From NCBI GenBank assembly GCA_934130405.1, contig CAKOXX010000005.1, positions 369 through 64,368 on the forward strand: 64,000 bases of DNA. The letters run 5' to 3'. Each line of letters starts with the position of its first letter. Positions within the stretch are counted from its first letter, which is position 1. Source of the DNA: an uncultured Bacilli bacterium. Lineage in GTDB: Bacteria; Bacillota_I; Bacilli_A; RF39; UBA660. Below are positions 4,976 to 28,110 of the stretch, piece by piece. A program made the position numbers and the translations under genes. The notes below the pieces were generated by a model that saw only the letters and a list, made by a program, of their open reading frames with translations, made no database searches and had not been told where the DNA came from.

Positions 4976-5950
4976 ATGAAAAAAACAATAAAGATAAGGT
5001 TAATTATAATAATATTAATTTCTTCGTTATTATTAACAACTTATCGAATATATCAAAAGTGTCCAAATAATCAAATATCTTTTAAGACTACCTCTGTTTC
5101 TACTACACAAAGATATATAGATAAAGATGTTTCAAATGTAAATGAAGCAATAAATTTAATAAAATCAGACTCAAAAATTCAAGAAAAAAACTGTAATAAT
5201 ATAATAAAAAATATAGATAAAGAAATACAAGAAGAAACACAAATATATGGAGTAAATCTTTGTGAAATGGAACCAGAAACAGCCAGACAAATTTACAATA
5301 CTTTAAATAAGATTTATAAAGAATATAAAGGATTAAAAGGATATGTCACAAACTTAAGCTTAAATAATGATAGTAATAGTTCACATCTAACGTCATTTAA
5401 GCCAAGTTATGTTTTTATAACTAGCTCTAAAAAAGATACTTTTCCAATGGTTATAAAAAGTCAAATCTTGTTGAACTCAAGATATTACTTAAATGAAGAC
5501 TATGCTAAAAAAGTAATAAATCAAGAAATAGACTCTGGAAATTTTCTTTCCAACACTACACTTCAAAGTCTTTTAGCACATGAATATGCTCATGTACTTA
5601 CTTATGTCTTAGCACTTAAGTATTATGAGAGTGTAAATCCCATTTTTCTAACAAAAGAAAATTATAAAAATTACAATAATGCTATTAATAATTATAAAAA
5701 CGATAACTTTAGTAAAATCATATTCAAGGAAGCATACAAAAATTATAATACCACTGAAAGTGAAGATGATTTTCAAAAAGCCATATCACTATATGCCAAT
5801 AAAAAAGATGCATTAGGAAATGTTTTATATAATGAAACAATAGCAGAAGCTTTTCATGATTATTTTTTGCATGGTAAACAAGCTAGTAAAGAATCGTTAG
5901 AAATAATGAAGGTACTTAATAAATATAGTATTAATTATTCAATAAAATAA
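4976..5950 (+). CDS. Membrane-anchored or secreted protein with an HExxH zinc-peptidase-like motif
   Basis: 324 aa with an N-terminal hydrophobic segment and a single HEYAH motif (LLAHEYAHVLTY). I did not recognise a family. Confidence 0.5.
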   Translation: MKKTIKIRLIIIILISSLLLTTYRIYQKCPNNQISFKTTSVSTTQRYIDKDVSNVNEAINLIKSDSKIQEKNCNNIIKNIDKEIQEETQIYGVNLCEMEPETARQIYNTLNKIYKEYKGLKGYVTNLSLNNDSNSSHLTSFKPSYVFITSSKKDTFPMVIKSQILLNSRYYLNEDYAKKVINQEIDSGNFLSNTTLQSLLAHEYAHVLTYVLALKYYESVNPIFLTKENYKNYNNAINNYKNDNFSKIIFKEAYKNYNTTESEDDFQKAISLYANKKDALGNVLYNETIAEAFHDYFLHGKQASKESLEIMKVLNKYSINYSIK

Positions 5951-6039
5951 AAATAAGAAAAATGAAAAACATCTTGAAGTAAATTAAAATATCTTCATAT
6001 ATAATAAAGAAGTCAAATAATAAAGTGAAGATGCTATCA

Positions 6040-6235
6040 AAAGTATTGAAAATTTAGTCAGTTCTAAAACAATAGTAGTGGTTAATAAAAATTATTCCTG
6101 AAACAAATTAAAAATCTTATATATATCAAAAACACAAGTAATACCACTTTACTATACTAGTGGAAATAATGGAACGAATGATAAAACATAATTATCAATA
6201 TTTCTGAATTAAATTTAACAATTGAAAATAAATGA
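6040..6235 (+). pseudogene. Decayed remnant of the 3' end of a paralog of the downstream MBL-fold gene
   Basis: Nucleotide similarity to 7520-7700. For example, ccactttactatactagtggaaataatgg at ~6143 matches ccactttattatactggtggaaataatgg at ~7619 (the PLYYTGGNNG region). The remnant is broken by stops. Confidence 0.4.
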
Positions 6236-6259
6236 AATAGAAAGGAATGTTAGTTAAAA

Positions 6260-7711
6260 ATGAAAAAAGAACTAAAAATAATATTACTATCAATCATTAT
6301 TTTGCTAGTATCTATAGTAAGCTGTATATATATAGATACGGAAAATAATAAAAAAACATTTAATAATAAGGAATCTTTCAATAGTCAAATGGAAGATGAA
6401 GATGAAGAAGATTATTCAATAAAAAACTATCAATACATAAACTTAGGTGTTGATCAAACTACAAAAATAAACTATGATTTTCTAGCTGAAAAATTAGATA
6501 AAATAGAATTTAGTAGTGCAAATGAAGAAATAGCTACAGTAGATCAAGAAGGAAACGTTTATGCTAAAGCAATAGGTAAAACAACAGTCACCTTAAAATA
6601 TAACAGTGGAACAATTGATTTTTATGTTACTGTTAATGATGCTTATACAAGTAATGCTAGTACTACCGATACAAAGGTACACTTTATTTCTTTACGACGA
6701 CCAGATACAGGAGAATTTAAAACAAATGATGCTATATTACTAGAAAGCAATGGCAAATATGCTTTAGTAGATACTGGTTTTGCCGTTACAGCAAATGATT
6801 TATACAATTATTTGATGCAATTTTCAACTAATGGAATATTGAAATTGGAATTTGTTTTAATAACACATAATCATACTGACCATATAGGAGGACTTGCATA
6901 CTTATTAGAAAAAAGTAATATAAAAATAAAAACACTCTATCTAAATAAATATTATAAAAATGATATAATGGCTAAATATATGGGTGCTAATAAGCAAGAA
7001 AACTATGCTATTTATAATAGCGAAAAAAATAAAAAATATGTTATAAATAATCAAATACGATATAACAGAGTAATTACTTTAATGAAACAAAGACATTTAA
7101 GTGATAATAGCAATTTTAATATTTACTATTTATCAGGGGCAGATGATGCACGGCGTGCAACAGGTGGACTAAAATCATTAAGCTTTGGAAATTATACAAT
7201 AAGACTATATAATACAAGACAACAATTAAAGAGCACAAAGATGGATTACAATGGTTTTAACAGTGGTGATTGTATAACAGAATATTGCCGAAATGCTGAT
7301 GGAAACGTAAATACAGTAGTAGCAAAAGTAACAAGTAATGTTAATGGAGTAGTGCACACAACCTTATTAACAGGAGACTTAAATTATCCACAATTGAAAG
7401 GAATAACTAAAACAGTTGGGAAAGTAGATGTCTTTAAAATGCCACATCATGGTGTTTATGCAACTAATAAAGCAAAGAAGTTAACATCTTCAGTAATTAG
7501 AAATAGTCTAAAAAATGCAATAGGATCTAATACAATAGTTGTAGTAACAGCAGCTAAAAGTAAATTTAATAATAGGTCAATATTAGGAATGTTATATGTA
7601 TCCCAAACTTTAGGTAGACCACTTTATTATACTGGTGGAAATAATGGTGCAGACGCTAGAACAATTGTTATTAATTATGCAAGATCAAATTTAGCTGTTG
7701 AATATAATTAG
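6260..7711 (+). CDS. Secreted MBL-fold (ComEC/Rec2-related type) hydrolase with an N-terminal Big_2-like Ig domain
   Basis: 483 aa with a signal/TM segment. A Big_2-like stretch (IATVDQEGNVYAKAIGKTTVTLKY) is followed by the metallo-beta-lactamase motif ITHNHTDHIGG and a later KMPHHG. Confidence 0.7.
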   Translation: MKKELKIILLSIIILLVSIVSCIYIDTENNKKTFNNKESFNSQMEDEDEEDYSIKNYQYINLGVDQTTKINYDFLAEKLDKIEFSSANEEIATVDQEGNVYAKAIGKTTVTLKYNSGTIDFYVTVNDAYTSNASTTDTKVHFISLRRPDTGEFKTNDAILLESNGKYALVDTGFAVTANDLYNYLMQFSTNGILKLEFVLITHNHTDHIGGLAYLLEKSNIKIKTLYLNKYYKNDIMAKYMGANKQENYAIYNSEKNKKYVINNQIRYNRVITLMKQRHLSDNSNFNIYYLSGADDARRATGGLKSLSFGNYTIRLYNTRQQLKSTKMDYNGFNSGDCITEYCRNADGNVNTVVAKVTSNVNGVVHTTLLTGDLNYPQLKGITKTVGKVDVFKMPHHGVYATNKAKKLTSSVIRNSLKNAIGSNTIVVVTAAKSKFNNRSILGMLYVSQTLGRPLYYTGGNNGADARTIVINYARSNLAVEYN

Positions 7712-7724
7712 AAAGGGATTAACT

Positions 7725-8387
7725 ATGAAGACACTAAAAAATATATTTATAGTTTGTTCAATATTAATAATTTGTATTTTAGTAGCATCTATCTATATAA
7801 CACCACTTTATGGACCGAAAAGAATAGAATCAGTAACATATAATTATTTAGATGATGACGATGAAGAAGATGATTTTAGTCCCTATGATGAAATGGCTAC
7901 ACCAAATGATATAGCTGATAATCCTGATGATGCTAATAGTAACTATGATGATAATAGCTATGATGATGATAATGATAACCAAGAAAAAATAGACGACTCT
8001 AGTAGTATTAATCAAAGTCAAGCAAATAATAATTCTAATGCTAATAATGGTAGCAATAATGCAAACAGTAATAATAGTGCTAATTCTAATAATGGAAGCA
8101 ATCAAACTACTAACAATGGAAGTTCAAATAATAATAGTAGCCATAATTCAAATAATAATAGTAGCCATAATTCAAATAATAATAGTAGCCATAATTCAAA
8201 TAATAATTTCTTTACTCCTAATGACAATGACGAAACAAATCAAAATTCAAAAAATAATATTAATTACGAATTAACAGAAGCTGATAAGGCCAAAATGCGT
8301 AAGCAAAAATTAATTCTTTATACCATTGTTTCTATTTATTTGATATTTATAGCAGTATCAGTAATAAGAAAAAAACTAAGAAAATGA
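7725..8387 (+). CDS. Low-complexity D/N/S-rich protein with TM segments at both ends
   Basis: I chose the start at ATG 7725, after AAAGGGA; the ORF track starts at TTG 7698. The protein has an N-terminal TM, an acidic stretch, a long N/S-rich region containing three exact NNSSHNSN repeats, and a C-terminal TM plus basic tail. Confidence 0.6.
   Translation: MKTLKNIFIVCSILIICILVASIYITPLYGPKRIESVTYNYLDDDDEEDDFSPYDEMATPNDIADNPDDANSNYDDNSYDDDNDNQEKIDDSSSINQSQANNNSNANNGSNNANSNNSANSNNGSNQTTNNGSSNNNSSHNSNNNSSHNSNNNSSHNSNNNFFTPNDNDETNQNSKNNINYELTEADKAKMRKQKLILYTIVSIYLIFIAVSVIRKKLRK
8136..8207 (+). repeat. Three exact tandem copies of a 24-bp unit (agtagccataattcaaataataat) inside the CDS
   Basis: Read directly from the sequence. 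The units occupy 8136-8159, 8160-8183 and 8184-8207. They are in frame and encode SSHNSNNN three times. Confidence 0.9.
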
Positions 8388-12930: not shown

Positions 12931-14679
12931 GTGAAAATAATGAATCAACAAGATATCATAAGAGAAATTAGACAAAAAAATGATATAGTTGATATCATTA
13001 GTGAAAAAATTCCTCTTGTTGCTCGTGGTAAAAATTACTTTGGTGTCTGTCCGTTCCACGATGATACTAATCCTTCAATGAGTGTTTCTAGAGAAAAGCA
13101 AATTTATACTTGCTTTTCTTGTCATGCTACTGGTAATGTTTTTAACTTTCTAATGGATTATGAACATAAAGAATTTAGAGAAGTCTTAAAAGAATTAGCT
13201 GATAGAGTAGGAATACCACTTGCAGGTTATCACGAGACAAAAAAAACAACCAAGTACGATGCCTGGTATGATATTTATAATCTAGCATTAAAATATTACC
13301 AAAACAACTTGATGAGTGGTATGGGTAAAGATGCTAGAAATTATTTGGAAAATAGAAGTATCGATGAAGAAATTATTAAAAAATTTGAACTGGGTTGGTC
13401 CCTAGATGATAACAACTTAACTAATCTTTTAATGAAGAAAGGTTATACAATAGATTTACTTAACCAAGTCGGACTAAGTACTGGTAATAATGATTTATAT
13501 CGAAATAGATTAATGTTTCCTTTGCACGATTTGAATGGTCGTGTAATAGGTTTTAGTGGACGAATTATTACTAATAGCAAACAAAATAAATATTTAAACA
13601 CCAAAGAAACCGAATTATTTAAAAAAGGGAAACTACTTTATCATTATCATATTGCTAAAGAAGCAGTCAGAATTAGTAAAAATGTTATTATTATGGAAGG
13701 ATTTATGGATATAATAAGAGCTAGTATCTATGGCTTTGATAATACAATTGCAACTATGGGAACTGCTCTTACTAAAGACCATATCAGTAATATCAAAAGA
13801 TTATCTCCTAATATAATTCTTTGCTTTGATGGAGATGAAGCTGGTCAAAAAGCGACCATGGCCGCTGGTAACTTATTTGGAGAAGCCGGTATCGAAGTTA
13901 AAGTAATAGAACTTCCCCTTGAAGATGATCCTGATAGCTTTTTACTTTCTAGAGGAAAAGACGCTTTTGCTAGCTTAATTAATAGTGCAATCTTCTTTAA
14001 AGACTATAAGATAAAACGTTTAAAAAATAAAGTAAACTTTGCTAGCAGTGAAGAAAAAGCTGATTATATTCATAAAGTCTTAGAAGAAACAAAAGAGATA
14101 GATGACCAGATAAGAATAGAAATAATATTAAAAGACCTTGCAAAAAACTTCGAAATAGGTTATAATACCTTGGAAAAAAGTTTTCAAGAATTAAAAGGCC
14201 AAAAAGAAATAACAACTTTTAAAATTGTGGAAACAAAAGCACCCACTGAAAGATTAGATAAGTATCAAAAAGCTAGCTATGCACTCCTTTCTTATATGAT
14301 TGATTTACCTTGGGTTATAGATGATGTTGAAGAAGCGCATCTTGTTTTTCCAAATAGTAAATTGCGCTTATTAGAAAATGAAATAGTAGCTTATTATAGA
14401 ACAAATGGCTTTATAAACTGGGCAGACTTTTACACTTATCTTGGAACAAATGAAGAATTATTGAAACTCTTATCAGAAATCGGTTCATATCCATTGAAGA
14501 AGGAAGTAAGCAAGGAAGAAATTTCTAGTTATGAAAGTGTTATTCTAGATTATAGTAGAAAACAACAAATCAAAAGATTAAATAAGAAATTACTTGATAC
14601 AACTGATCCACTGGAACAAGCAAGAATAGCTGAAGAGATAAGAAAATTGAGAATTGGGGAGAAGCAAAATGGTAAATGA
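12931..14679 (+). CDS. dnaG: DNA primase
   Basis: The zinc-binding region is [13 protein letters not shown]...[13 protein letters not shown], and the TOPRIM motifs are EGFMDII and [10 protein letters not shown]. The real start may be ATG 12940. Confidence 0.95.
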
Positions 14680-15763
14680 AATTAAAACTATTGAACAAAG
14701 AAAAGAAAATCTAATCAAAAAAGGTAGTGAAAATGGTTACATTACTTATGAAGAAATGGCCAATGAACTAAAGGGTTTAGAACTAGATAGTGATAGTCTT
14801 GATGATTTATATAATAGTTTAGTAGATGCAGGTATTGAAATAGTTAGTGAAGATGCTAATGATGAAGAAGCTAGTGGCGAAGAAATAACTGATAATACTT
14901 TAGTTGAAAATATTACTCTTTCTAAGGACATTAAGATTAATGACCCAGTTAGAATGTATTTAAAAGAAATTGGTCGTATTCCATTGCTTACTTCTGATGA
15001 AGAATTTGAATATGCAAGACGTGCTGTAGATGGTGATGAAGAAGCTAAAAGAATCTTAGCTGAATCTAACCTACGTCTTGTTGTATCAATTGCTAAACGT
15101 TATGTCGGAAGAGGAATGCTTTTCCTTGACCTTATCCAAGAAGGTAATATTGGTCTTATGAAAGCAGTTGATAAGTTTGATCCAGAGAAAGGATATAAAT
15201 TTTCAACTTATGCTACTTGGTGGATTAGACAAGCTATTACTAGAGCTTTAGCTGATCAAGCAAGAACTATTCGTGTTCCTGTTCATATGGTTGAAACTAT
15301 TAATAAGTTAGCACGTGTTCAACGTCAATTAACACAAGACTTAAATAGAGAACCAACTGATGAAGAAATTGCCAAAAAATTAGGAATCTCTGTTGATAAA
15401 GTAAGAGAAGTTTATAAGATAAGTCAAGACCCTGTCTCACTTGAAACACCAATCGGTGAAGAAGATGATTCTCATTTAGGTGATTTTATAAGAGATGAAC
15501 GTACTGTTAGTCCTGAAGAATATGCAACAGAAGAATTATTAAAAGAAGAACTAGCAGGTGTTTTACTTACCTTAACTGATCGTGAAGAAAAAGTATTAAG
15601 ACTTCGTTTTGGTCTAGATGATGGACAATGTAGAACTCTAGAAGAAGTAGGGCAAATCTTCGGTGTTACTAGAGAAAGAATTAGACAAATAGAAGCCAAA
15701 GCTTTAAGAAAACTAAGACACCCATCTCGCTCTAGAAAATTAAAGGACTTTTTAACTGACTAA
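14669..15763 (+). CDS. sigA: Primary RNA polymerase sigma factor SigA/RpoD
   Basis: The protein has an acidic region 1.1. Region 2 reads [18 protein letters not shown]...[16 protein letters not shown], and region 4.2 reads [31 protein letters not shown] chose ATG 14669, after GGGGAGAAG; it overlaps the dnaG stop. Confidence 0.95.
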
Positions 15764-16419
15764 TGAAGATAAATAAACGTTTAAAACTAGTTGGTGATTA
15801 TATTAGTGAGGAAAGCATTCCTCTTGATGTTGGATGTGATCACGCCAAGTTATCCATCTATTTGTTAAAAGAGCGAAACTTTCCTTTTGTTTATGCTTCT
15901 GATAATAAAGAAGGACCTTTAAATCAAGCTAAAGAAAACATATCATTTTATAATCTTGTAGATAGAATAAAACTATCAAAGAAAGAAGGCTTAGCTTCTC
16001 TTGAAGATAATATTGATACTATCACTATTACTGGAATGGGTGGACTTACTATTTGTAAGATATTCAAAGAAAATGAAAAAAGTCTTGCAAATATTAAAAG
16101 TATTATTTTATCACCTAATAACTTTATTAAAGAAGTTAGAGAAACTATTTGTTCTTTAGGGTATTACATTGATGAAGAAACATTAGTAGTAGAAAATGCA
16201 AAAACTTATCATATTTTAGTATTTGCTAGAGGAAAGAAAAATTATTCTTTAAAAGAATTATCTCTTGGACCAATACTTATGTTAAAAAAAGATAAACTAG
16301 TAAAAGACTATTATCATAATAAATTAAGAGAAGTAAATAGTTTACTTCAAAAAAATATAACAGAAGAAAAACATAAAGAATTAGAATTACTAAAGGAATA
16401 TTTGGAAGAAACTTGCTAA
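15763..16419 (+). CDS. trmK: tRNA (adenine22-N1)-methyltransferase TrmK (YqfN family)
   Basis: 218 aa. The N-terminus KRLKLVGDYI...DVGCDHAKLSIYL and the motif ITGMGG fit the family, as does the conserved position after sigA. Confidence 0.8.
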   Translation: MKINKRLKLVGDYISEESIPLDVGCDHAKLSIYLLKERNFPFVYASDNKEGPLNQAKENISFYNLVDRIKLSKKEGLASLEDNIDTITITGMGGLTICKIFKENEKSLANIKSIILSPNNFIKEVRETICSLGYYIDEETLVVENAKTYHILVFARGKKNYSLKELSLGPILMLKKDKLVKDYYHNKLREVNSLLQKNITEEKHKELELLKEYLEETC

Positions 16420-16441
16420 ATATTCCTTTTTTTGGTATAAT
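16413..16441 (+). promoter_or_regulatory. Sigma-A-type promoter of giant sigma paralog 1
   Basis: TTGCTA (16413-16418), a 17-nt spacer, then TATAAT (16436-16441). The stretch from the -10 box through the SD is nearly identical to 20531-20558. Confidence 0.6.
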
Positions 16442-16471
16442 ATGTAAGAAATTTTGAGGGGGTAAAAGATT

Positions 16472-18532
16472 GTGAGATTAAATAGTGAAAAAATTAAAAA
16501 AATGTCAATGGACAAATTAGCAGAATTATTAGCAAAAGATATGAAAAAAGTGGGTGATACTTACTCGTTTGCATTTTCTTCAAAAGAAGATGCTATCAAA
16601 TTAATGAATAATCAGTTATTAAAGAAATATTCGGAAATAACTAATAGTACCGTAGATGAAGAGATTGATTTTCAAGATGAGTTTAAAACTACAATAACTG
16701 ACTATATTAAAAGTACTTTTGAAACAGAGAATGAAAGATATTTACAAATATTTAATAATTATCTAAAACAAAACGTTGGAGAAATTGATTCTTATAAAAC
16801 AGCACATCAAGCACTTAAAAAAGTTACAGATTTATTTACAACAATAGATTATGTACCAAGTGAAATCACTTGTTCTAGTTTATTAGAAGCTAATTCAAAA
16901 ACAACTACTATGATTAAAGAAGTATTTAAAAAGTTTGAAAAACAACTTTCTAAATCACCAGTTGAAGATGTATTTCCTAGCGAAGTAGTAGCATCATTTG
17001 TAACGGCATATGCTTATCTTAATAATATAGAATTAAAAACTAATGAAGATTTAGTTATGGAGGAAACTGATGATAACTTAGAGAACAACGAATTTTTTAA
17101 TAAGTTGAAATCTTATTATAGTTCTCTACCACCAGTTTTAACTAAAAAAGAAGAACAAGAATTATTAGAAAAAAGTAAAAATGGGGATAAACTTGCTCGT
17201 AATCAATTAGTTGAAAGAAATTTGAGATTAGTAATATCAATTGCTAAACGCTATAAAGATAAAAAAATTGAGGTTGTTGATTTAGTTCAAGACGGAAGTA
17301 TCGGCTTAATTAATGCAATTGAGAGATTTGACTTTACTAAACAAACTAAATTTTCAACATATGCTTGCTGGTGGATTGTAAGAGAAATTAATAGAGATAT
17401 TGTTAATAACGGTAGAACAGTGAGAGTACCACTTCATATGCAAGAAAAAGCTAAAAAGTATAATAAAGATTATAAGAAAATGGTAAGCAAATTAAATAGA
17501 TATCCTACTGATGCTGAAATTCAAAAAGAATTAAGAATTTCTGATAAAAGTATGCAACAAATCAAAGCTGTTAACTCTGAAATTGCTAGTTTAGATGAAT
17601 CAATAAAAGAAGATAGTGATGATACTCTTGCTGAATTTTTAGCATCAAATGAATTAAGTGTAGAAGAGCAATATGAACTAAAAGCTTTACACGCTGACCT
17701 TGAAAAAGTCTTCACTAGTGGAGTTTTATCAGAACGTGAAGTTGAAATATTAAAACTTAGAAATGGCTACTATGGAGAAATTTACACTCTACGAAGTGTT
17801 TCAGAACAACTTGGTGTTTCGCACGCAAGAGTAGGGCAAATAGAGGAAGCCGCTTTACAGAAAATATTCCGTTCAAAATATAAAAAATCTTTAGCTCAAT
17901 ATTTAACAAATGGTGAAGATATAACTGTAAGAGGGGAAAAAGTATTTGGTCATGATAGAAAACCTAAAGCTCAAAAAATTAGTTTAGAAAAACAAATGAG
18001 TATTAAATATGTATACAACTATTTTGAAGGCTATAATAAAGAAGAAATAGCAACAGCTATTAAGTCAACCTTATCAAATGATGAATTAGCATTACTTTCT
18101 AAATTCTATGGTAATGACTTGGTTAACTTAACATATAATAATACTTCATCAACTAGTCTTAGAGAAAAATTACGTACCGAGATTCTTCCAGTAATTCAAA
18201 AAGAATTAGCTGATAATTCGATAGCCGTTTTAAACTATGAAAGACGTCAAAATAATGTAGCTACTGATTATACACAAATTCTAAATCAAGAGATAAATAA
18301 AAAATCTGCTGCTAATGAAACAGAATATTTAAGTGATAGAAAAATAGATAAATATTTATCAGCAACTTTAGTAGAAGATGGTGCTGAAGATTTAGCTAAT
18401 AGAGTTCATAATATTACAACTAAAAACCTAGCCAGTTATTGTAAACAATTATTATCAGGAAGCAAGATAGAAAAAAGAGAATATCAACAAGAGCAAAAAG
18501 TTTTAGTTAAGACTATGAGTAAAAGTAATTAA
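16472..18532 (+). CDS. Giant sigma-70-family protein, paralog 1 (686 aa): novel N-terminal domain, sigma regions 1.2-4.2, and a ~215-aa C-terminal extension
   Basis: The core spans aa ~222-468: NLRLVISIAKRY, DLVQDGSIGLINAIERFD, FSTYACWWIVREI, RTVRVPLHM and LGVSHARVGQIEEAALQKI. The flanking domains are shared only with the two paralogs downstream. GTG start after GAGGGGG. Confidence 0.8.
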   Translation: MRLNSEKIKKMSMDKLAELLAKDMKKVGDTYSFAFSSKEDAIKLMNNQLLKKYSEITNSTVDEEIDFQDEFKTTITDYIKSTFETENERYLQIFNNYLKQNVGEIDSYKTAHQALKKVTDLFTTIDYVPSEITCSSLLEANSKTTTMIKEVFKKFEKQLSKSPVEDVFPSEVVASFVTAYAYLNNIELKTNEDLVMEETDDNLENNEFFNKLKSYYSSLPPVLTKKEEQELLEKSKNGDKLARNQLVERNLRLVISIAKRYKDKKIEVVDLVQDGSIGLINAIERFDFTKQTKFSTYACWWIVREINRDIVNNGRTVRVPLHMQEKAKKYNKDYKKMVSKLNRYPTDAEIQKELRISDKSMQQIKAVNSEIASLDESIKEDSDDTLAEFLASNELSVEEQYELKALHADLEKVFTSGVLSEREVEILKLRNGYYGEIYTLRSVSEQLGVSHARVGQIEEAALQKIFRSKYKKSLAQYLTNGEDITVRGEKVFGHDRKPKAQKISLEKQMSIKYVYNYFEGYNKEEIATAIKSTLSNDELALLSKFYGNDLVNLTYNNTSSTSLREKLRTEILPVIQKELADNSIAVLNYERRQNNVATDYTQILNQEINKKSAANETEYLSDRKIDKYLSATLVEDGAEDLANRVHNITTKNLASYCKQLLSGSKIEKREYQQEQKVLVKTMSKSN

Positions 18533-18550
18533 AAAAGAAGAAAGGAGAAG

Positions 18551-20467
18551 TTGCTTATTATTATGATAAATAATATGAATAATAATATAAACACTTTAGA
18601 ACCTTTAGACAAACTTTCTCCAGATGAGACAACTTATGAACTATATTTAAGTAGAGATAATATGCTTGACTTACTTAAAGGAGATTGTAATGTCTTTTCT
18701 AGATTAGATATTGATATAAGAGATGATGAAGAATTTGTCATTGAAGCAATAAGAGGCAATCATCTTAATTATAACTATATTAGTGATAGATTACGTAATG
18801 ATTTGGATTTTACTATCAAATTAGTCAAGAAATTAGACTTTGGAGCAGTAATTAAATTATTTGATGAAAAATATAGAGATAACGAAGAAATTATGTTGAT
18901 TGGACTAAGCAAATGTATAGCAGCATATCGATTTTTATCACCAAGACTAAAAAATGATCCAGAGTTTAATGCGAGACTTGCTGTTATTCCTAAAACGGTA
19001 CTTGGTTATGATTACTTGCCAGCAAAAATGATTAAAAATAAAGAATTTCAAGAAAAATTAGAAGAGTTAAAAAGTCAAGAAAAAGGCCAAATAATAAAAC
19101 AAAATATTGCTCAAAACAAACAAGAATATTTACTAGAAGAACAAGAAAGAAAAATTAAAAAACGAGAAAATAAAACTTATAAAGTATTACTAAGTAGAAA
19201 TAACATATTAAATCTGTTAAATACTACTTATGGTTTTTCTCGTAGTGATATGGTAATAAGAGACAATGCTGAATTTGCTATGATAGCTATAGAAAGACGA
19301 TATACTAATTATGATTATATAAGCGATAGGTTACGCAATGATTTGGACTTTACACTAAAAGTAGTTCAAAGGATTGATTCTGGTATGGTAGCTAAATTTT
19401 TTGTTGATAAATATAAGGATAATGAAGAAATTATGTTTACTGTTTTAAGAAAAAGTCCACAAGCATATCGTTTTCTATCACCAAGATTAAAACAAAATCC
19501 CGAATATAATGCTAATCTTATAATTAATATAGGAATGAAATGTAGTAGATACTTATCAAATCAAGTAAAAACCAATCCAGTATTTATAGAAAAACTAAAA
19601 GATAATGGTTTTAGTGTAATTTATTATGAAAACTTAAAAAGAGCACAAGATATTAGCGAAAATCAAGAGGAAAGAAAATATTTAAAAATATGTAAAAAAT
19701 TTATAGAAACTAAATCGTCGACATCAACATTAACAGTTCAAAAATTTATAGAACAAGAAAAAATAAATATAAAAGATTTTAATTCTGCAATAGATTATAT
19801 ATCAAAAACTGATAAAGATGTATATACTTATATAAAAGGTATATTAAATTTAAATAGTCAAAAATATATACATACAAGAGAAAATGCAATTGCTCAGTTT
19901 ATTAACGATTTAAATAATGATATACAACTAACTAATGGAGAAATTAGAAAGTGTAATATTATCGATTTTTATAGATATTTTGGCAGATATGATTTAAAAC
20001 CTGATATGAGAGAATTTAAAAAATTTATAAATCGTCCGTTAGAACCAACCTTAGTTAGAAAATTAAATAAATTTTTTAGTGAAAACAAGGAAGGAAATCG
20101 TATAAACTATAAGCAAGAGTACGAAGGTGTACAATCTTTCTTAGTTAATGGAACACCAGTAGAAGCAACATTGGCACAAAAGAAAAGTGTAGCTAGTTTA
20201 ATGTTTAAAAATAATCTACCAAATGTTAGAAAAGTTTATACAATCTTATTAAGAAGTTGTGTAAAAGGAAGCCTTGAATCAGAATACGAATATTTACTAT
20301 CAAAATCAAATAAAGATACAGATGAGATTTTAGATGATAGTAAAAATGCAACTGAAGATGAACTTATAAGACGAATAACTGATAGGATGAAAGAAACTGA
20401 TACAAAAGAATGTATGAGAGAAAAAATATTTGTTAAAAGTAATACACTATGGGATGTAAATTATTAA
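18551..20467 (+). CDS. DUF4116-type repeat protein (about 634-638 aa depending on the start codon) with an internal ~110-aa duplication
   Basis: Two near-duplicate modules contain IRDDEEFVIEAI...YISDRLRNDLDFTIKLVKK...YRDNEEIM...AYRFLSPRLKNDPEFN and its second copy. This looks like the DUF4116 repeat pattern. The start may be ATG 18563. It is separated from paralog 1 by 18 nt. Confidence 0.65.
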   Translation: MLIIMINNMNNNINTLEPLDKLSPDETTYELYLSRDNMLDLLKGDCNVFSRLDIDIRDDEEFVIEAIRGNHLNYNYISDRLRNDLDFTIKLVKKLDFGAVIKLFDEKYRDNEEIMLIGLSKCIAAYRFLSPRLKNDPEFNARLAVIPKTVLGYDYLPAKMIKNKEFQEKLEELKSQEKGQIIKQNIAQNKQEYLLEEQERKIKKRENKTYKVLLSRNNILNLLNTTYGFSRSDMVIRDNAEFAMIAIERRYTNYDYISDRLRNDLDFTLKVVQRIDSGMVAKFFVDKYKDNEEIMFTVLRKSPQAYRFLSPRLKQNPEYNANLIINIGMKCSRYLSNQVKTNPVFIEKLKDNGFSVIYYENLKRAQDISENQEERKYLKICKKFIETKSSTSTLTVQKFIEQEKINIKDFNSAIDYISKTDKDVYTYIKGILNLNSQKYIHTRENAIAQFINDLNNDIQLTNGEIRKCNIIDFYRYFGRYDLKPDMREFKKFINRPLEPTLVRKLNKFFSENKEGNRINYKQEYEGVQSFLVNGTPVEATLAQKKSVASLMFKNNLPNVRKVYTILLRSCVKGSLESEYEYLLSKSNKDTDEILDDSKNATEDELIRRITDRMKETDTKECMREKIFVKSNTLWDVNY

Positions 20468-20507
20468 TCTACGTTCTTTTTTTGATTAGTTTTAGAACAA
20501 TTAAAAT

Positions 20508-20536
20508 TTGCAAAATAGAGCGTTTTTTAGTATAAT
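20508..20536 (+). promoter_or_regulatory. Sigma-A-type promoter of giant sigma paralogs 2 and 3
   Basis: TTGCAA (20508-20513), a 17-nt spacer, then TATAAT (20531-20536). The downstream leader ATCTAAGAAATTTTGGAGG closely matches the paralog 1 leader ATGTAAGAAATTTTGAGGG. Confidence 0.6.
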
Positions 20537-20561
20537 ATCTAAGAAATTTTGGAGGAATAAT

Positions 20562-22580
20562 ATGCAGTTAGAAAATACAACAATAAGAAAAATGTCAATC
20601 GAAAAATTGGGAGAATTACTTGCTAAAGATATGAAAAAAATAAGTGAAACTTATTCCTTTGCATTTGCTACTAAAGAAGATGCAATAAATTTAATGAGTT
20701 CATTTCTTAAAGTAGAATATGTAAATATAATTAATAATGATAAAAATGAATGTATAGATTTCTATAGTACTTTTGAAGATGTAATGAATAACTATGTTAG
20801 AACGATTTTTGAAGTAGACTATGAACTAGCATATACAAAATTATTTAATAAGTATATGGAACAAAATGTAGGAGAAATTACTAGTTACAAACAAACACAT
20901 TACGAAATTAAAAAAATAATTAGTTTTTTTAAAACTATTGGTTATCAGCCTTCAGAAATTGTATGTTCAAACATTCTAGAAAGTAATTCTAAATTTTCTA
21001 CTATGATTGGAAAAATAGTAGATAGGTATAAGGAAAAATTAAGTAGTATGAATGCTGAAGAAATTTTTCCTGATTCTACAATGTTATCATTTGTCACTAC
21101 TTATGCTTTTATTAATGAAATAGAATTAAAAACTAAAGCTGAAGAACAAGAAAATATTAATCCTGAAATTTTACCGGATTTAGATATTTATAGTGATGAT
21201 AATGTAAAATTATATATAAAATCCTTACAAAAAACATTATTACCAAATGACCAAAGAAAATTATTTCTTCAATTAAAAGAAGGAGACTTAGATGCTAGAA
21301 AGAAACTAATTGAAACTAATTTAAGATTAGTAGTACCGATAGCATCCTACCACCAAAATAGGGGGGTAGAATTTTTAGATTTGATTCAAGAAGGTAACAT
21401 TGGCTTAATGAAAGCAGTTGATAAATTTGATTGTGAAAGAGGCTGTACCTTTTCAACCTATGCTTATTGGTGGATTAAAAATTATGTTTTAAAAGGAGTT
21501 ATGAAATATAAAAAAACAATTGCCATACCATCTTCTATTCAAGGAATAGTAAACAAATACAATTCAAATTTTAATGAACTAACTAGAAAGCTTAAAAGCT
21601 ATCCTACGCAAAAAGAAGTAATGGAAGAGTTAAATATTACTAATCAACAATTAGATCAAGCTATGATGGTAAATGCTAAAATGTTAAGTTTAGATGAACC
21701 ATTAGGGGTTGATAATGATTTGCCTCTTGGGGAACTTATAGCAACAGATGATTTAAGTATTGAGGAAGAATATGAAAAAAAATCCTTAGAAACTGAGGTG
21801 AGAAATTTACTTAATAGTGATTTGCTAGATGAACGTACTATAGAAATTTTGAAATTAAGAAACGGTTTTTGTAATAATCGTGTATATTCTTGTAGGGAAG
21901 TAGGAGAAATTTTAGGAATTAGTAGACAAAGAGTAGACCAAATAGAAGCGAGAGCTTATAAAAAATTAAGAAATTCTGATTACAGTGATGCCGTACTGGC
22001 CTACTTAGTAAATGGAACTAAAATTAAAGAAAGAATTACTAAAGAAAGGGTAGAAGAATTAGCAGCGAGAAAAGCTAATAGACTTAAAGTAAATCAGGAA
22101 GAAAAACCTGATGTTCGAAAAATCTATGCATACTTTTCTGGTTACCAAAAAGAAGAAATTGCTGAGGTTATCTCATCTTTATCAAAAGAAGATTTAGAAA
22201 TAGTAAAAGGGTTATTTGGTAGTAATTTGAAAAGATTATCTTATCAAAAAAAATCGACTGCTACTAGTTTAGAAAAATATAGTGAACAAATTATTCCAGT
22301 TATTGAAGATAAATTAAATAATGACTATATAAAAGTTTCAAATTACTACATAAAATGTAATGATTTATCATTTGATTATGATAAGACAGAATATCATAGT
22401 TTAGATGATAACCAGTTTGACGAACTAGATAAAGGTAAAATCAACTACGCTAACATAAGAAAAAGTTTATTTGCTTCCTTTCAAACTGATACTTCTGTTT
22501 CTTTTAATAAAAGAAAAGTAAGAAAACAAACATTACAAAATAAAAAAGGTGAACAACCTAAAATACTAATATATAAATAA
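20562..22580 (+). CDS. Giant sigma-70-family protein, paralog 2 (672 aa from ATG 20562)
   Basis: I chose ATG 20562 (MQLENTTIRKMSIEKLGELLAKDMKK), which aligns with the starts of paralogs 1 and 3. The core contains [20 protein letters not shown] and FSTYAYWWIKNY. The RTxRxPVH element is degenerate (KTIAIPSS). Region 4.2 reads ISRQRVDQIEARAYKKL. Confidence 0.8.
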   Translation: MQLENTTIRKMSIEKLGELLAKDMKKISETYSFAFATKEDAINLMSSFLKVEYVNIINNDKNECIDFYSTFEDVMNNYVRTIFEVDYELAYTKLFNKYMEQNVGEITSYKQTHYEIKKIISFFKTIGYQPSEIVCSNILESNSKFSTMIGKIVDRYKEKLSSMNAEEIFPDSTMLSFVTTYAFINEIELKTKAEEQENINPEILPDLDIYSDDNVKLYIKSLQKTLLPNDQRKLFLQLKEGDLDARKKLIETNLRLVVPIASYHQNRGVEFLDLIQEGNIGLMKAVDKFDCERGCTFSTYAYWWIKNYVLKGVMKYKKTIAIPSSIQGIVNKYNSNFNELTRKLKSYPTQKEVMEELNITNQQLDQAMMVNAKMLSLDEPLGVDNDLPLGELIATDDLSIEEEYEKKSLETEVRNLLNSDLLDERTIEILKLRNGFCNNRVYSCREVGEILGISRQRVDQIEARAYKKLRNSDYSDAVLAYLVNGTKIKERITKERVEELAARKANRLKVNQEEKPDVRKIYAYFSGYQKEEIAEVISSLSKEDLEIVKGLFGSNLKRLSYQKKSTATSLEKYSEQIIPVIEDKLNNDYIKVSNYYIKCNDLSFDYDKTEYHSLDDNQFDELDKGKINYANIRKSLFASFQTDTSVSFNKRKVRKQTLQNKKGEQPKILIYK

Positions 22581-22604
22581 TGATACTTAACAGGGGGGAG
22601 TATT

Positions 22605-24623
22605 ATGCAATTAGAAAGTACAATAATTAAAAAGTCTTCAGTAGATGAGTTAACAGAATTGCTAGCCAAAGATATTAAAAAAATCAGTGATGAATATTCT
22701 TTTGCTTTTGACTCAACTGACAAAGCAATTACATTAATGAATCTTTTTATTAAGAAAAAATATGTAAAAATCATTAATAGTTCTAAAGAAGAGAAATTTG
22801 ATTTTCATAAAATTTTAGAAAATGTAATGAATAACTATGTTAATAGCATTTTTTCAAGAGAAGACGATGAAGAATATATAAAATTATTTAATAAATATAT
22901 AGAAGCAAAGATAGGAAAAATTACTAATTATAAAGAAGTTCATTATGAATTGGAAAAAGTCGTTTCCCTCTTTGAAACTATTGATTATCACCCATCAGAA
23001 ATTATGTCAACCACACTTTTGAAAAAAAATTCGAAGTTTTCTGCTATGATTGGAGAAGTAGTAAAAAAATTCAGTAGGAGAATAGCTAAATCTAATATTG
23101 AAGATGTTTTTCCGGATTCCATAATGTTATCTTTTGTGTCAGCATATGCCTATCTAAATAAAATAGCCTTAAAAACAGAAGAAAACATTGTAGAAGAATC
23201 ACCAGTTAAGCAAAAAAATGAAAGTTATGTAGATAATGATGTAACTTTATATATGCAAAGTATACCAAAACAATTAAAATCTGATGAAGAAAGAGAATTA
23301 TTTATACAAATGAAACTTGGTGATTTAGAAGCACGAGATAAGTTGGTAAAAGGGAATTTAAGATTAGTAGTTTCAATTGCTAAACGATATTTAGATAAAG
23401 GTGTGCCATTTTTGGATTTAATCCAAGAAGGAAATCTTGGTTTAATAAAATCTGTTGAAAGATTTGATTATGAAAGAGGCTGTACCTTTTCAACATACGC
23501 AACCTGGTGGATTAAACAGTATATTTCAAATAGTATTATGAATGATGGAAGAACAGTTAGAATACCAGTTCATATTCATGAAAAATTAGCAAAATACAAT
23601 AAAGTATATAGCAAGCTATCAAAAAAACTTAATAGAAATCCAACTCCAGAAGAAGTAGCACAAGAGATGAATCTTACAGATAATCAAATATATAATATTA
23701 TGGCAGCAACTACTGGAATATTAAGTTTAGATGAACCAGTAAAAGAGGATAGTGATGATACTCTTGCAAAATTTTTAGCATCTGATGAATTAAGTATAGA
23801 AGAACAATATGAAAAAAGTTCTTTAGCAAAAGATGTAAATGATTTACTTGATAATGTTTTACTAAAAAAACGTGATATTGAAATTATTAAATTGCGTAAT
23901 GGATTTTATAATAATAGAAAATATAGCTTGAAAGAAATTGCAAAAATTTTTGATATTTCTAGTGAACGTGTTCGACAGATAGAAGCAAAAGCTTATGAAA
24001 TTTTAAGAAATCCTAAATATTCTTCTAATATAGTCGAATACTTAGAAAACTCTGATTCTATTAAGAATAGAATTGCTAAAGAACTAGAAGCTCAAAGAAT
24101 AAAAAAAGAAACTGATAAAAATAGAATCAATAGTGAAAAAATAACAGGCGTAAAAAAAATATATTCACGTCTTAATGGCTATACAAGGAAAGAAATAGCA
24201 GAAGTTATAGCATCTTTACCAGAAGTGGATATAGAAGCAGTTTATGATGTCTTTGGTCATCGCTTGGAAAAACTTTGTTATAGAAATTCGTCCTTAGAAA
24301 CTAATAGAGAAAAGATTAGTAATCAAATTTTAGATTCTATTGAAGAAAAATTAGCAACTGATTATATTAGAGTAATAAATTATTGTAAAAATTGTAGTGG
24401 TGTTCATTTTGATTATGATGCGGTAGAAGTACCTAATAGTTTTAGTGAAACTAGTTATGATATAGAAGAATTAAGATGTAGCCAAAATCTTATAAGCAAA
24501 TCTTTACGTGCTTCTATACAAGAAAATATTGGTACAAATACTTTAACTACTAATAAAGTACTAACTAAGCATAAATCATTAAATAATAAAAACACTCACC
24601 AAAAAGTATTAATATATAAATAA
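22605..24623 (+). CDS. Giant sigma-70-family protein, paralog 3 (672 aa)
   Basis: It lies 24 nt after paralog 2 with a GGGGGGAG RBS. The core contains [54 protein letters not shown] and ISSERVRQIEAKAYEIL. It has the same N- and C-terminal domains as paralogs 1 and 2. Confidence 0.8.
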   Translation: MQLESTIIKKSSVDELTELLAKDIKKISDEYSFAFDSTDKAITLMNLFIKKKYVKIINSSKEEKFDFHKILENVMNNYVNSIFSREDDEEYIKLFNKYIEAKIGKITNYKEVHYELEKVVSLFETIDYHPSEIMSTTLLKKNSKFSAMIGEVVKKFSRRIAKSNIEDVFPDSIMLSFVSAYAYLNKIALKTEENIVEESPVKQKNESYVDNDVTLYMQSIPKQLKSDEERELFIQMKLGDLEARDKLVKGNLRLVVSIAKRYLDKGVPFLDLIQEGNLGLIKSVERFDYERGCTFSTYATWWIKQYISNSIMNDGRTVRIPVHIHEKLAKYNKVYSKLSKKLNRNPTPEEVAQEMNLTDNQIYNIMAATTGILSLDEPVKEDSDDTLAKFLASDELSIEEQYEKSSLAKDVNDLLDNVLLKKRDIEIIKLRNGFYNNRKYSLKEIAKIFDISSERVRQIEAKAYEILRNPKYSSNIVEYLENSDSIKNRIAKELEAQRIKKETDKNRINSEKITGVKKIYSRLNGYTRKEIAEVIASLPEVDIEAVYDVFGHRLEKLCYRNSSLETNREKISNQILDSIEEKLATDYIRVINYCKNCSGVHFDYDAVEVPNSFSETSYDIEELRCSQNLISKSLRASIQENIGTNTLTTNKVLTKHKSLNNKNTHQKVLIYK

Positions 24624-24652: not shown

Positions 24653-24680
24653 TTGACTTAAATTTTAATTATGATATTAT
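24653..24680 (+). promoter_or_regulatory. Putative promoter of the fur-family/rubrerythrin operon
   Basis: TTGACT (24653-24658), a 16-nt spacer ending in TGa, then TATTAT (24675-24680). Confidence 0.5.
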
Positions 24681-24685
24681 ATTAA

Positions 24686-24702
24686 TTGATAATAATTATC
24701 AA
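24686..24702. promoter_or_regulatory. Perfect Fur/PerR-type 7-1-7 box (TTGATAAT-A-ATTATCAA)
   Basis: An exact 8-1-8 palindrome. Its core TGATAATAATTATCA equals the classical Bacillus Fur-box consensus TGATAATNATTATCA. It sits just downstream of the -10 box of the fur-family gene. Confidence 0.7.
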
Positions 24703-24716
24703 TAAGGGCTGATTTT

Positions 24717-25097
24717 ATGGAGAGATTAACTAAGCAAAAACAACTCATTTATGAAGTATTGAAGGAATGTCATTTACATCCAACATTACTAGAACTTACT
24801 GAGCTAGTCAAAGAAAAAGACTCTAATATTGGTCAAGCTACTGTTTATCGAACTATCAACAAATTAGTAGAAAAGGGTGAAGTAGCTAAACTAGTATCAG
24901 TTGATCATAATTATCGTTACGATATTAGTAAAGACCACTATCACTTTCAGTGCACTAACTGTGGAGTAATAGAAGATATATTTTATAGTAGTGAAGAGCT
25001 AAAAAAAATAAAAGAGTTATTTAAAAATCAAAATATTAACAGTATTGATTTAATTGGTTATGGTCTTTGTAAAAAATGTTCTAAGGATAATTGTTAA
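24717..25097 (+). CDS. Fur-family transcriptional repressor, probably PerR-like given the linked rubrerythrin
   Basis: 126 aa with a winged-helix N-terminus (ATVYRTINKLVEKG), two CxxC pairs (CTNCG and CKKCS) and a HYHF motif. Confidence 0.85.
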   Translation: MERLTKQKQLIYEVLKECHLHPTLLELTELVKEKDSNIGQATVYRTINKLVEKGEVAKLVSVDHNYRYDISKDHYHFQCTNCGVIEDIFYSSEELKKIKELFKNQNINSIDLIGYGLCKKCSKDNC

Positions 25098-25948: not shown

Positions 25949-26791
25949 GTGATGACTTCTTGTCCTAATTATCTTTCTTTTCTAATTAGTGAATTTACAG
26001 GTGTATCAAAAGAAGATATTAAACGTAAATTAGTGATTAAGAATAATGAACTTAATCTAAGTAATGCTAAAGAAAAAAGAAAAATCTCTGATTTTATTGT
26101 TGGTATTGATAAGTTATTAGTTAATATCGAAATGAATGGCAAATATTATGAATGGTTATTCATGCGAAATGATGCTTATCTAGGAAAGATTGAAGGAGAA
26201 AGTTTAAACTCTGGTAATGATTATAGTACCCTTTATTCGTTTTTACAGATTAATCTAAATAATTTTACTTACTTTAAAGGTAATGATTCAACATTAGAAT
26301 TTGTTTATACTGATAAAAAAAGTAAACAAATTGAAACGGAAAAAGTTAAAAAATATCATATCAGTCTTCCAAAACTAGCTAAGAAATACTATAATGGAGC
26401 TAGATTAAGTAAGCTTGAAAAAGCGTTACTTATACTAAAAATTGATAAGATTAGTGATTTAGAAAAATTAGGGAAAGGAGATAATGACTTGATGGAAGCA
26501 GTAGGAAGAATAAAAGAAGCTTCTCTTGATATTAATACGATTGGCCTTTATGATGCTGACATGGAGCGCGAAAGAATTGAAAATGGTATTAGAAGTATAT
26601 CATTTAAAGCCGGCGATAAACATGGATTCAGTCGAGGTGTTGAATATGGACTTGAGCAAGGACTTGAGCAAGGAAGCACAAAAGAAAGAATTTTTATAAT
26701 TAGTGCAATGCTTAATAACGGAATGAGTCAGGAAGAAGTTACTAGGATGACTGGTATACCAATAAAAGAAGTAAAAGCGATAAAACTCTAG
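25949..26791 (+). CDS. Rpn-family recombination-promoting nuclease / putative transposase (PD-(D/E)XK, YhgA-like)
   Basis: The N-terminal pattern is DSVFKIVM...FLISEF...SDFIV...VNIEMN, and the C-terminal repeats are ERGxEQG-like with an HTH-like tail (MSQEEVTRMTGIPIKEVKAIKL). The frame is open upstream to 25844, so the true N-terminus is uncertain. Confidence 0.65.
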   Translation: MMTSCPNYLSFLISEFTGVSKEDIKRKLVIKNNELNLSNAKEKRKISDFIVGIDKLLVNIEMNGKYYEWLFMRNDAYLGKIEGESLNSGNDYSTLYSFLQINLNNFTYFKGNDSTLEFVYTDKKSKQIETEKVKKYHISLPKLAKKYYNGARLSKLEKALLILKIDKISDLEKLGKGDNDLMEAVGRIKEASLDINTIGLYDADMERERIENGIRSISFKAGDKHGFSRGVEYGLEQGLEQGSTKERIFIISAMLNNGMSQEEVTRMTGIPIKEVKAIKL

Positions 26792-26900: not shown

Positions 26901-27263
26901 GAAAAGGCTCTACTTATATTAAGAGTTGATAAAGTTAGTGATTTAGAAAAACTAGGAGAAGGAGATGAAGATTTAATGGAAGCAGTTGGAAGAATAGGGG
27001 AATCTTCGCTTGATATTAATACTATTGGACTTTACGATGCTGATTTGGAACGAGAGAAAATAGAAAATGGTATCAGAAACATATCATTTAAAGCTGGTGA
27101 GCAGCATGGATTTAATCGTGGAATCGAACGTGGAATTGAACAAGGAAGTATGCAAAAGCAAACTACAATAATTAGTGCAATGCTTAACAATGGATTCAGT
27201 CAAGAGGAAATATCTAAAATTACTAATATCCCAATAAAAGAAGTAAAAACGGTTAAATTTTAG
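26901..27263 (+). pseudogene. Truncated 3' copy (~120 codons) of the Rpn-family gene
   Basis: The in-frame translation EKALLILRVDKVSDLEKLGEGDEDLMEAVGRIGESSLDINTIGLYDADLEREKIENGIRNISFKAGEQHGF... parallels the C-terminal third of the 25949 gene. The nuclease N-terminal part is absent. Confidence 0.6.
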
Positions 27264-27877: not shown

Positions 27878-27902
27878 TAAATTTGTGATAGTATAAACAT
27901 TA

Positions 27903-28110
27903 AATCAATGAGAAGGAAGTAGTAAAAGATTAATAAAAGTAAAAGAGAGATTATGGTTGGTGTAAATAATCCTTTTATCCTTTGAATTCATCCTTTGAGT
28001 CTTAAAGCAAAACTTTAAGCGTTACTCGCGTTAAGAGATTAGAGTGTATAGAAAACTATAAAATAAGGTGGTACCACGGATATGTTTCGTCCTTAGTTTA
28101 TAGTTTTTCT
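27903..28110 (+). promoter_or_regulatory. T-box leader (Phe specifier UUC) with an intrinsic terminator
   Basis: The stem I start AATGAGAAGGAAGTAGTA and an AGAGAG box are present. The specifier context is GAAUUCA (UUC at 27987-27989). The T-box sequence AAGGTGGTACCACGG lies at ~28065-28079. The terminator is GAAAACTATAAA...TTTATAGTTTTC followed by a T-run (28051-28108). Downstream are a HAD gene, pheS and pheT. Confidence 0.75.

Follow-up and report, generated by a model that had tools for sequence, protein, structure and literature searches.

The window analysed here, 64,000 nucleotides of contig CAKOXX010000005.1 from an uncultured Bacilli bacterium, encodes three long paralogous proteins, S1, S2 and S3, each of which joins a sigma core of RpoD type to a large N-terminal domain (N-domain) and a C-terminal extension. 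The three proteins are members of the sigma-70 family, and are not RpoD equivalogs, MzaA proteins or extracytoplasmic function (ECF) sigma factors. S1–S3 are probably functional, lineage-specific alternative sigma factors with accessory domains, acting by the mechanism proposed below. This explanation draws on the domain anatomy, the homology of a C-terminal module to sigma region 4, the distribution of the family, purifying selection, and the layout of promoters and operons, and it would entail core binding, promoter specificity, and roles for the N-domain and the module. An initial annotation, made from the sequence alone, had placed S1–S3 and a gene for a DUF4116-repeat protein after dnaG-sigA-trmK; Pfam and NCBIfam, by which the dnaG-sigA-trmK context was identified, bear out these positions. 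The three genes and their parts are as follows.

S1: 16472-18532, + strand, 686 amino acids (aa), GTG start; N-domain aa 1-190 (16472-17041); sigma core aa ~226-482 (17147-17917); sigma-4-like module aa ~511-590 (18002-18241), then a weakly conserved tail
S2: 20562-22580, + strand, 672 aa, ATG start preceded by GGAGG; N-domain 20562-21131; core aa ~229-486 (21246-22019); sigma-4-like module aa ~518-597 (22113-22352)
S3: 22605-24623, + strand, 672 aa; N-domain 22605-23174; core aa ~227-484 (23283-24056); basic helix aa 483-513; sigma-4-like module aa ~516-595 (24150-24389); disordered tail

The full-length identity among S1–S3 is 38-48%, with pairwise values of 47-48% over the N-terminal 215 aa and 27-28% over the C-terminal ~200 aa. 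The program-made open reading frame (ORF) of S2 begins at a TTG at 20508, inside a promoter, and the ATG at 20562 is preferred.

The sigma core

The Pfam models Sigma70_r2, r3 and r4 all match S1, S2 and S3 at aa ~245-470, with scores above gathering (63-77, 34-65 and 35-43 bits, respectively). A full core from region 1.2 to region 4.2 had been proposed initially; regions 2, 3 and 4 are present in all three proteins, but region 1.2 is undetected by Pfam. At this position the alignment to SigA is degenerate and AlphaFold2 (AF2) puts helices, and Pfam detects region 1.2 in 36/50 family relatives. Region 1.1 (Sigma70_r1_1) was not found in S1–S3 by Pfam at E<0.1, while SigA matches it at 8e-13. 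The AF2 model of S3, based on a 93-sequence family alignment, has a mean predicted local distance difference test (pLDDT) score of 82.9. When compared by Foldseek with the SigA, RpoD and RpoS chains of holoenzyme structures, it matches at E 1e-15 to 1e-19, with TM-scores normalised to the target of up to 0.66.

The neighbouring SigA is a bona fide primary sigma factor. It is matched by the Pfam models r1_1, r1_2, r2, r3 and r4, and scores 597 bits against the NCBIfam RpoD equivalog model NF006666 (cut-off 572). The three paralogs fail this equivalog test, at 192, 202 and 260 bits, as do ten further family members. Their best NCBIfam models are of RpoD/SigA type, RpoS and MzaA (cyano-RpoD, RpoD_Cterm and RpoS models included), which match over the core only and far under their cut-offs. 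That long proteins of this kind are the primary sigma factor of some other lineage was rejected, with 13 further family members tested and all below the RpoD cut-offs.

The core motifs NLRLV, DL(I/V)Q(E/D)G, FSTYAxWWI and QIE are conserved in S1–S3, and alignment to SigA indicates that the core-binding helix and the FSTYAxWWI melting residues are kept in all three. The SigA-like motifs quoted in the initial annotation are present, except that the FLDLIQEGN... string holds for S2, S3 and SigA only, region 2.2 of S1 reading VVDLVQDGSIGLINAIERFD. The loss of the RTxRxPxH element from S2, also noted initially, is confirmed: S2 reads KTIAIPSS where the others read RTVR(V/I)P(L/V)H, and it carries substitutions at the residues for contact with the extended -10 and with -12 (KTIAIPSSIQG). 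The divergence of DNA-contact residues among the paralogs was likewise recovered in the SigA alignment, in which we take the contact positions to follow E. coli sigma-70 numbering. S3 keeps Q437, H455, E458, E585, R588 and Q589; S1 carries the changes Q437R, T440N, R584H, E585A and R588G; and S2 carries Q437N, T440L, R451A, H455S, E458G and R588D. The S2 ortholog in a related genome (L003, below) differs yet again at base-contact positions.

In a distance tree of the cores, S1–S3 and an S3 ortholog form a clade of their own. The core of the window's SigA is nearer to the wider family (median identity 45%) than are those of S1–S3 (34-37%), which fits fast-evolving derivatives of a SigA-like ancestor that were duplicated within the lineage.

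The N-domain and the sigma-4-like module

Sigma-70 architecture is among the most thoroughly mapped topics in bacterial transcription, and primary-like sigma factors are thought to vary chiefly in region 1.1 and in the non-conserved insert. The N-domain of S1–S3 (aa 1-190) resembles region 1.1 of primary sigma factors in lying N-terminal to region 1.2, in being mildly acidic (family median isoelectric point [pI] 5.2) and in having an acidic linker next to it. It differs in being twice as large, with about 12 helices, in matching neither Sigma70_r1_1 nor any structure in the PDB, and in its net charge, which is -6 to +1 vs -14 for aa 1-95 of SigA. Modelled alone by AF2 from a 122-sequence alignment, the N-domain reaches a pLDDT of 96 and a predicted TM-score (pTM) of 0.89, and the predicted fold is a compact all-alpha bundle. 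It has no Pfam or NCBIfam match at E<0.1, no PDB match by sequence and no significant PHROGs match, and a Foldseek search with the model yields no match at E<0.001 in PDB or BFVD.

A degenerate sigma-like domain was considered for this segment and rejected as unsupported: the top Foldseek matches, all weak, are the ECF-type entries SigW, PhyR and CnrH, at E of about 1 or more and TM about 0.3, and when hhalign is run with the sigma-2, sigma-3, sigma-4 and module profiles of the family itself, the probability is <1%. The N-domain profile matches only designed helical repeat proteins among PDB sequences, a compositional effect. Consistent with the initial annotation, searches of Pfam, NCBIfam, PADLOC, PHROGs and PDB assign neither the N-terminal nor the C-terminal part to a characterised sigma-associated domain.

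An exhaustive hidden Markov model search of 1.84 billion cluster representatives recovered the N-domain in 172 of them at E<1e-3 (16 at E<1e-10). The initial claim of a ~220-aa domain that replaces region 1.1 therefore stands in that the domain is shared by S1–S3 and is not region 1.1, but it is not exclusive to these three proteins. Nearly all of the 172 representatives are long sigma-70 proteins of 500-1100 aa with the domain at the N-terminus; among 50 tested, Sigma70_r2 was found in 48, r4 in 48, r3 in 46 and r1_2 in 36. Every cluster that was looked up is metagenomic, and the sole source annotation reads 'sigma-70 family RNA polymerase sigma factor [Bacillota bacterium]'. Word-indexed homolog searches returned two matches for the N-domain profile and five for the C-terminal profile, all near-identical fragments. 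Nothing was found by tblastn of the N-domain against INPHARED and PLSDB or by a scan of IMG/VR.

The architectures of the family follow the scheme N-2-3-4-(M)0-5, in which the module occurs after the core in 0-5 copies. Two family members depart from it. P0117 (577 aa, metagenomic) consists of an N-domain followed by five sigma-4-like modules without regions 2-4, and P0035 has two modules ahead of the N-domain. These layouts indicate that the N-domain and the modules can occur without the sigma core or rearranged around it.

The C-terminal extension after region 4.2, ~200 aa in length, is present as initially described, but it is not unrelated to the sigma core, since its folded part is a diverged duplicate of region 4. 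The S3 model continues after region 4 with a long basic helix (aa 483-513; the connector, aa 485-515, has a pI of ~9.8-10), then a helical module of ~75 aa (pLDDT ~80-90), a disordered stretch and finally a poorly conserved tail. The module consensus is IYxYFxxYxKEEIxxVIxxLxxxExxLLxxRYGxDLxNP...IPKI. Four tests identify the module as a diverged copy of sigma region 4. First, when 121 modules are compared with region 4 of the family by hhalign, the probability is 85% (E 5.8e-6). Second, the modules of P0117 are matched by NCBIfam ECF and BldN region-4 models. Third, Pfam Sigma70_r4 or r4_2 weakly match 12 and 8 of 35 modules (best E 7e-5). Fourth, the module profile finds its best PDB sequence matches in region 4.1 of SigA from S. 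aureus and C. difficile and in sigma-4 fragments of RpoD (best E 0.0016). The extra copies of some members score higher with the true region-4 profile than with the module profile (e.g., N-2-3-4-4), which points to a continuum from duplicate to module. The likeness peaks in region 4.1, and conservation of the recognition helix is poor. Modules of the family are basic, with a median pI of 8.9. The module profile found no match in the word-indexed search, the domain being too short for the E-value over 5.8 billion sequences.

Among known classes, S1–S3 are most like group 2 sigma factors (RpoS, cyanobacterial SigB-E, actinobacterial SigB/HrdA-D) in the way they would work, with two accessory elements in addition. 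They share with that group a core of RpoD descent that comprises regions 2, 3 (with the 3.2 finger) and 4, the absence of region 1.1, and coexistence with a bona fide primary sigma factor. Group 2 sigma factors, however, are ~300-400 aa long and have neither a folded 190-aa N-terminal domain nor extra copies of region 4, whereas S1–S3 lie far under every curated cut-off and evolve much faster than SigA.

MzaA of the MZA anti-phage system (NCBIfam NF041931, PADLOC PDLC02203) likewise carries a big N-terminal addition on an RpoD-like core, and its model is among the top NCBIfam matches for S1–S3, and the top one for S3. Unlike MzaA itself, S1–S3 match the model only at positions ~454-716 of 726, leaving the N-terminal 450 positions unmatched, and score 190-263 bits vs a cut-off of 800, in agreement with PADLOC. 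Membership in the MZA system was rejected, PADLOC having matched the MzaA core only. PADLOC gives no Mza match for the DUF4116 ORF (only PtuB, at E 8.5e-4); the other neighbours, which were scanned by Pfam only, are the housekeeping genes trmK, fur and rubrerythrin.

ECF sigma factors with C-terminal extensions have been reviewed (PMC7826278, PMC8999054). In ECF41, ECF42 and ECF56, an accessory domain acting in cis after region 4 modulates sigma activity (PMC7826278, PMC8999054, PMC3426412). S1–S3 may follow the same principle. ECFs lack region 3 and region 1.2, in contrast to S1–S3, which have region 3 and RpoD-type regions 2 and 4; and ECF extensions are SnoaL-like, TPR and similar domains rather than a region-4 duplicate. 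The view in the initial annotation that large terminal additions are foreign to sigma families is contradicted both by the MzaA model, with its core at 454-716 of 726 positions, and by the extended ECFs (PMC7826278, PMC8999054). For the combination of N-domain, core and region-4 duplicate, no description was found in the literature searched.

Transcription, selection and possible functions

The promoters of S1–S3 and the genes beside them are located as follows.

14654-15763, + strand: housekeeping sigA, the context and likely evolutionary source of S1–S3
15763-16419, + strand: trmK
16413-16456, + strand: promoter P1, including the 22-nt segment GTATAATATGTAAGAAATTTTG; TTGCTA-17-TGgTATAAT at 16413-16441
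18551-20467, + strand: DUF4116-repeat protein, 638 aa
20508-20551, + strand: promoter P2, including the same 22-nt segment as P1; TTGCAA-17-TATAAT at 20508-20536

In the consensus scan P1 has 10/12 matches, with the TG of an extended -10. The 22-nt -10/leader segment occurs twice in the window, 5' of S1 and 5' of S2 (chance expectation 0.06), and its identity at P1 and P2 implies that the duplication took the promoter along. The gap between S1 and the DUF4116 gene is 18 nt, with a ribosome-binding site AGGAG, and that between S2 and S3 is 24 nt, with a ribosome-binding site GGGGGGAG; neither contains a terminator. The simplest reading of this layout is that S1-DUF4116 and S2-S3 form two bicistronic units expressed from sigmaA-type promoters, in keeping with the two-operon organisation suggested initially.

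The gene order of the window recurs in independent assemblies of three related uncultured Bacilli species, namely the human-gut metagenome-assembled genome (MAG) HGM10844 (L001), the MAG SUG1206 (L002) and a Hadza gut MAG (L003), and the arrangement is also found in several Logan and ENA contigs, including L004-L006. Intact ORFs are present in three or more species and in several assemblies made independently. The ratio of nonsynonymous to synonymous substitution rates (dN/dS, omega) was estimated between the window and L001-L003. SigA is 98-100% identical in aa sequence across the three species with dN/dS of 0.00-0.03, and DnaG is 91-98% identical with dN/dS of 0.04-0.06. S2 and S3 are 65-87% identical, with dN/dS of 0.19-0.32 for S2 and 0.17-0.30 for S3, and S1 is 91% identical to its L001 ortholog, with dN/dS of 0.21. 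S1–S3 are thus under purifying selection, yet they evolve roughly ten times faster than SigA. Omega is about 0.1-0.3 in the N-domain, the sigma core and the module alike, and 0.4-0.9 in linkers and tails. The low values in the N-domain, core and module suggest that all three folded parts are maintained by selection.

S2-S3 is the constant pair. L002 lacks the 5' two-thirds of S1 and the greater part of the DUF4116 gene: comparison of L002 7085-7900 with window positions 16424-18007 and 18715-20447 indicates that the S1 promoter, the first ~510 codons and most of DUF4116 are missing, which leaves a 175-aa ORF of module plus tail and a 69-aa DUF4116 stub. This gap is either a real deletion or a collapse in MAG assembly. 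In L003 (positions 4609-7842), the S1 counterpart has 873 aa, is 32% identical to S1, and carries two modules at its C-terminal end plus an additional helix-rich terminal segment that contains SIKEIIILSLAFGYVDNKYF; the next ORF, of 152 aa, repeats a module and this terminal segment, and DUF4116 is absent. In positions 1-1600 of an ENA contig (L007), S1 is represented by its 3' part alone, starting at region 2.2, and abuts unrelated DNA of higher GC content whose opposite strand encodes a secreted protein of surface type. Either chimeric assembly or an S1-disrupting insertion produced this junction.

The deletion of most of S1 and DUF4116 in L002, the junction in L007 and the loss of conserved motifs from S2 would be expected if S1–S3 were decaying duplicates of sigA on their way to pseudogenes, or assembly chimeras. 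We give this explanation hardly any weight, and it is largely refuted already: all three ORFs are intact in the window as well as in L001, at least four independent assemblies have intact S2 and S3, every folded domain has dN/dS well below 1, and AF2 confidence is high. The recurrence of the arrangement in independent assemblies (L001, L003, L004-L006) shows that the ORFs are not chimeric.

The block between trmK and fur could also be the cargo of a mobile element or a prophage remnant. Its GC content is 0.25-0.27 compared with 0.28-0.31 in the flanks, and a PD-(D/E)XK transposase-like ORF lies 1.3 kb downstream. In model Bacilli such as B. subtilis, the sigA-trmK region is not known to carry such a block, which would also favour a mobile origin. 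Against this, integrase, recombinase, flanking repeats and tRNA were not found, homologs are absent from the phage and plasmid collections searched, the block occupies the same site in three species with SigA dS up to 0.6, and its promoters are of the host sigmaA type. We therefore regard a mobile origin as very unlikely.

The initial annotation further envisaged a dedicated module beside sigA that includes DUF4116, a grouping that the comparison shows not to be conserved. The DUF4116 gene is found in the closest relatives only and is absent from all other family loci, so it was rejected as a conserved partner; deletions affect it and S1 in L002; and family loci of other lineages are sited elsewhere. 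L010 carries one between polC and yqeG-yqeH, and L014 one near gerQ and gyrB. The family locus of L015 consists of another tandem pair followed by a stand-alone module ORF.

In the main alternative explanation, S1–S3 would take part in genetic conflict and would not be ordinary regulators of cellular genes; they might be abortive-infection or anti-phage sigma factors like MzaA, or proteins that hijack RNA polymerase or act as decoys. A dN/dS about 10-fold above that of neighbouring housekeeping genes, tandem duplication with copy loss (the L002 deletions and the tandem pair in L015), a rare and patchy distribution confined to metagenomes, and DNA-contact residues that differ even among orthologs would all suit such a role, and MzaA demonstrates that an RpoD-like core with a large N-terminal addition can serve defence. 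However, the MzaA models fit only the sigma core (454-716 of 726 positions; 190-263 bits vs 800), no convincing PADLOC match was found next door (DUF4116 vs PtuB at E 8.5e-4, the neighbours otherwise being scanned by Pfam), N-domain homologs were not found in phage, plasmid or IMG/VR collections, and the loci are embedded in housekeeping regions. Across INPHARED, PLSDB, IMG/VR, PHROGs and PADLOC, no link to phage, plasmids, IMG/VR sequences or defence systems was found. On balance, a conflict role seems rather improbable.

Under the explanation that we favour, alternative sigma factors with accessory domains, S1–S3 would have arisen from a SigA-type sigma factor, with subsequent local triplication that included promoter and leader. 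Each paralog would bind core RNA polymerase through the intact regions 2.1-2.2, 3.2 and 4, and its FSTYAxWWI aromatic cluster would melt a -10 element resembling TATAAT. Each is proposed to read its own -12, extended -10 and -35 context, since the paralogs differ in the residues that contact bases: S3 remains near SigA, S1 is altered at the -35 contacts, and S2 dispenses with the extended -10 contacts. The autoinhibitory acidic region 1.1 would be replaced by the mildly acidic 190-aa all-alpha domain and its acidic linker, and the N-domain is most likely a regulatory or partner-binding head. The basic helix and the diverged region-4 copy would lie upstream of -35 in the holoenzyme, a position that would allow contacts with upstream DNA or with a partner protein. 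S1-DUF4116 and S2-S3 would be transcribed as two units from the sigmaA-type promoters. The core function would thus be conventional, and the mechanism of the accessory domains is our proposal.

Several observations weigh against this explanation. No target promoters of S1–S3 were identified, and region 1.2 escapes detection by Pfam. S2 lacks several canonical DNA contacts and for this reason may not be a normal initiation factor. The three modules of the window are neutral to acidic (pI 4.9-8.1), and DNA binding by the module is doubtful because region 4.1 is matched far better than the recognition helix. Moreover, fast evolution, tandem duplication and presence/absence variation fit a conflict-type system too.

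The same anatomy would be expected if S1–S3 represented a mechanistically distinct class of initiation factors. The additional copies of region 4, of which S1–S3 have one each and other members up to five, would serve together with the basic connector to read an array of upstream elements or to recruit partners. A single chain would then unite sigma factor and 'activator', a signal-responsive gate formed by the N-terminal fold would take the place of region 1.1, and P0117 would be a free-standing regulator built from the same parts. We consider this unlikely.

At minimum, the N-domain and the sigma-4-like module are two definable new domain families. An RpoD-derived family is described here with a confidently folded N-terminal domain that has no match in Pfam, NCBIfam, PDB or BFVD, and for tandem region-4 duplicates in a sigma family no description was found in the literature searched. 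If S1–S3 form holoenzymes, they would provide a natural experiment on what replaces region 1.1, and a test of whether promoter recognition reaches further upstream than -35 when additional sigma-4 domains are present. That they evolve fast and were triplicated locally in uncultured Bacilli of the human gut suggests a lineage-specific role in regulation or conflict.

Neighbouring genes

The window is AT-rich (GC 0.25-0.33), and its + strand holds almost every gene. The genes from 9.9 to 25.7 kb run in the order polysaccharide deacetylase, yqeG-like HAD phosphatase, yqeH-like GTPase, dnaG, sigA, trmK, S1, DUF4116 protein, S2, S3, Fur-family gene and rubrerythrin. The DUF4116 ORF matches Pfam DUF4116 (PF13475) in five stretches at E 1.5e-26 (92.1 bits vs a gathering score of 24.9). 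The gene contains an internal duplication of ~266 bp (about 18707-18972 and 19247-19512), and a PHROG of unknown function matches the repeat part of the protein. For the C-terminal half (aa ~370-638), the only family match is a weak one to PADLOC PtuB (E 8.5e-4, aa 409-493).

The Fur-family gene (24717-25097) is followed by that for rubrerythrin. A promoter-like site, TTGACT-16-TGaTATTAT, lies 5' of the Fur-family gene (region 24653-24716), as does a perfect 7-1-7 palindrome, TGATAATAATTATCA, at 24687-24701. We take this palindrome to agree with the classical Fur box consensus, and the likeness suggests autoregulation of a putative fur-rubrerythrin operon. Further downstream, the PD-(D/E)XK transposase-like ORF (Pfam PDDEXK_2) occupies 25949-26791, and a 95-aa ORF at 26976-27263 repeats its C-terminal part. 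The gap between rubrerythrin and frr is ~1660 bp in the window vs ~440 bp in the close relative L004, which marks the region of the transposase-like ORF as a strain-specific insertion.

The window contains no tRNA genes and no Rfam match other than a T-box leader (RF00230, 112.7 bits) at 27899-28097, which lies 5' of a gene for a HAD hydrolase and of two ORFs that come after it. From comparison with L004, where Pfam matches of pheS type are found, these two ORFs are likely pheS-pheT.

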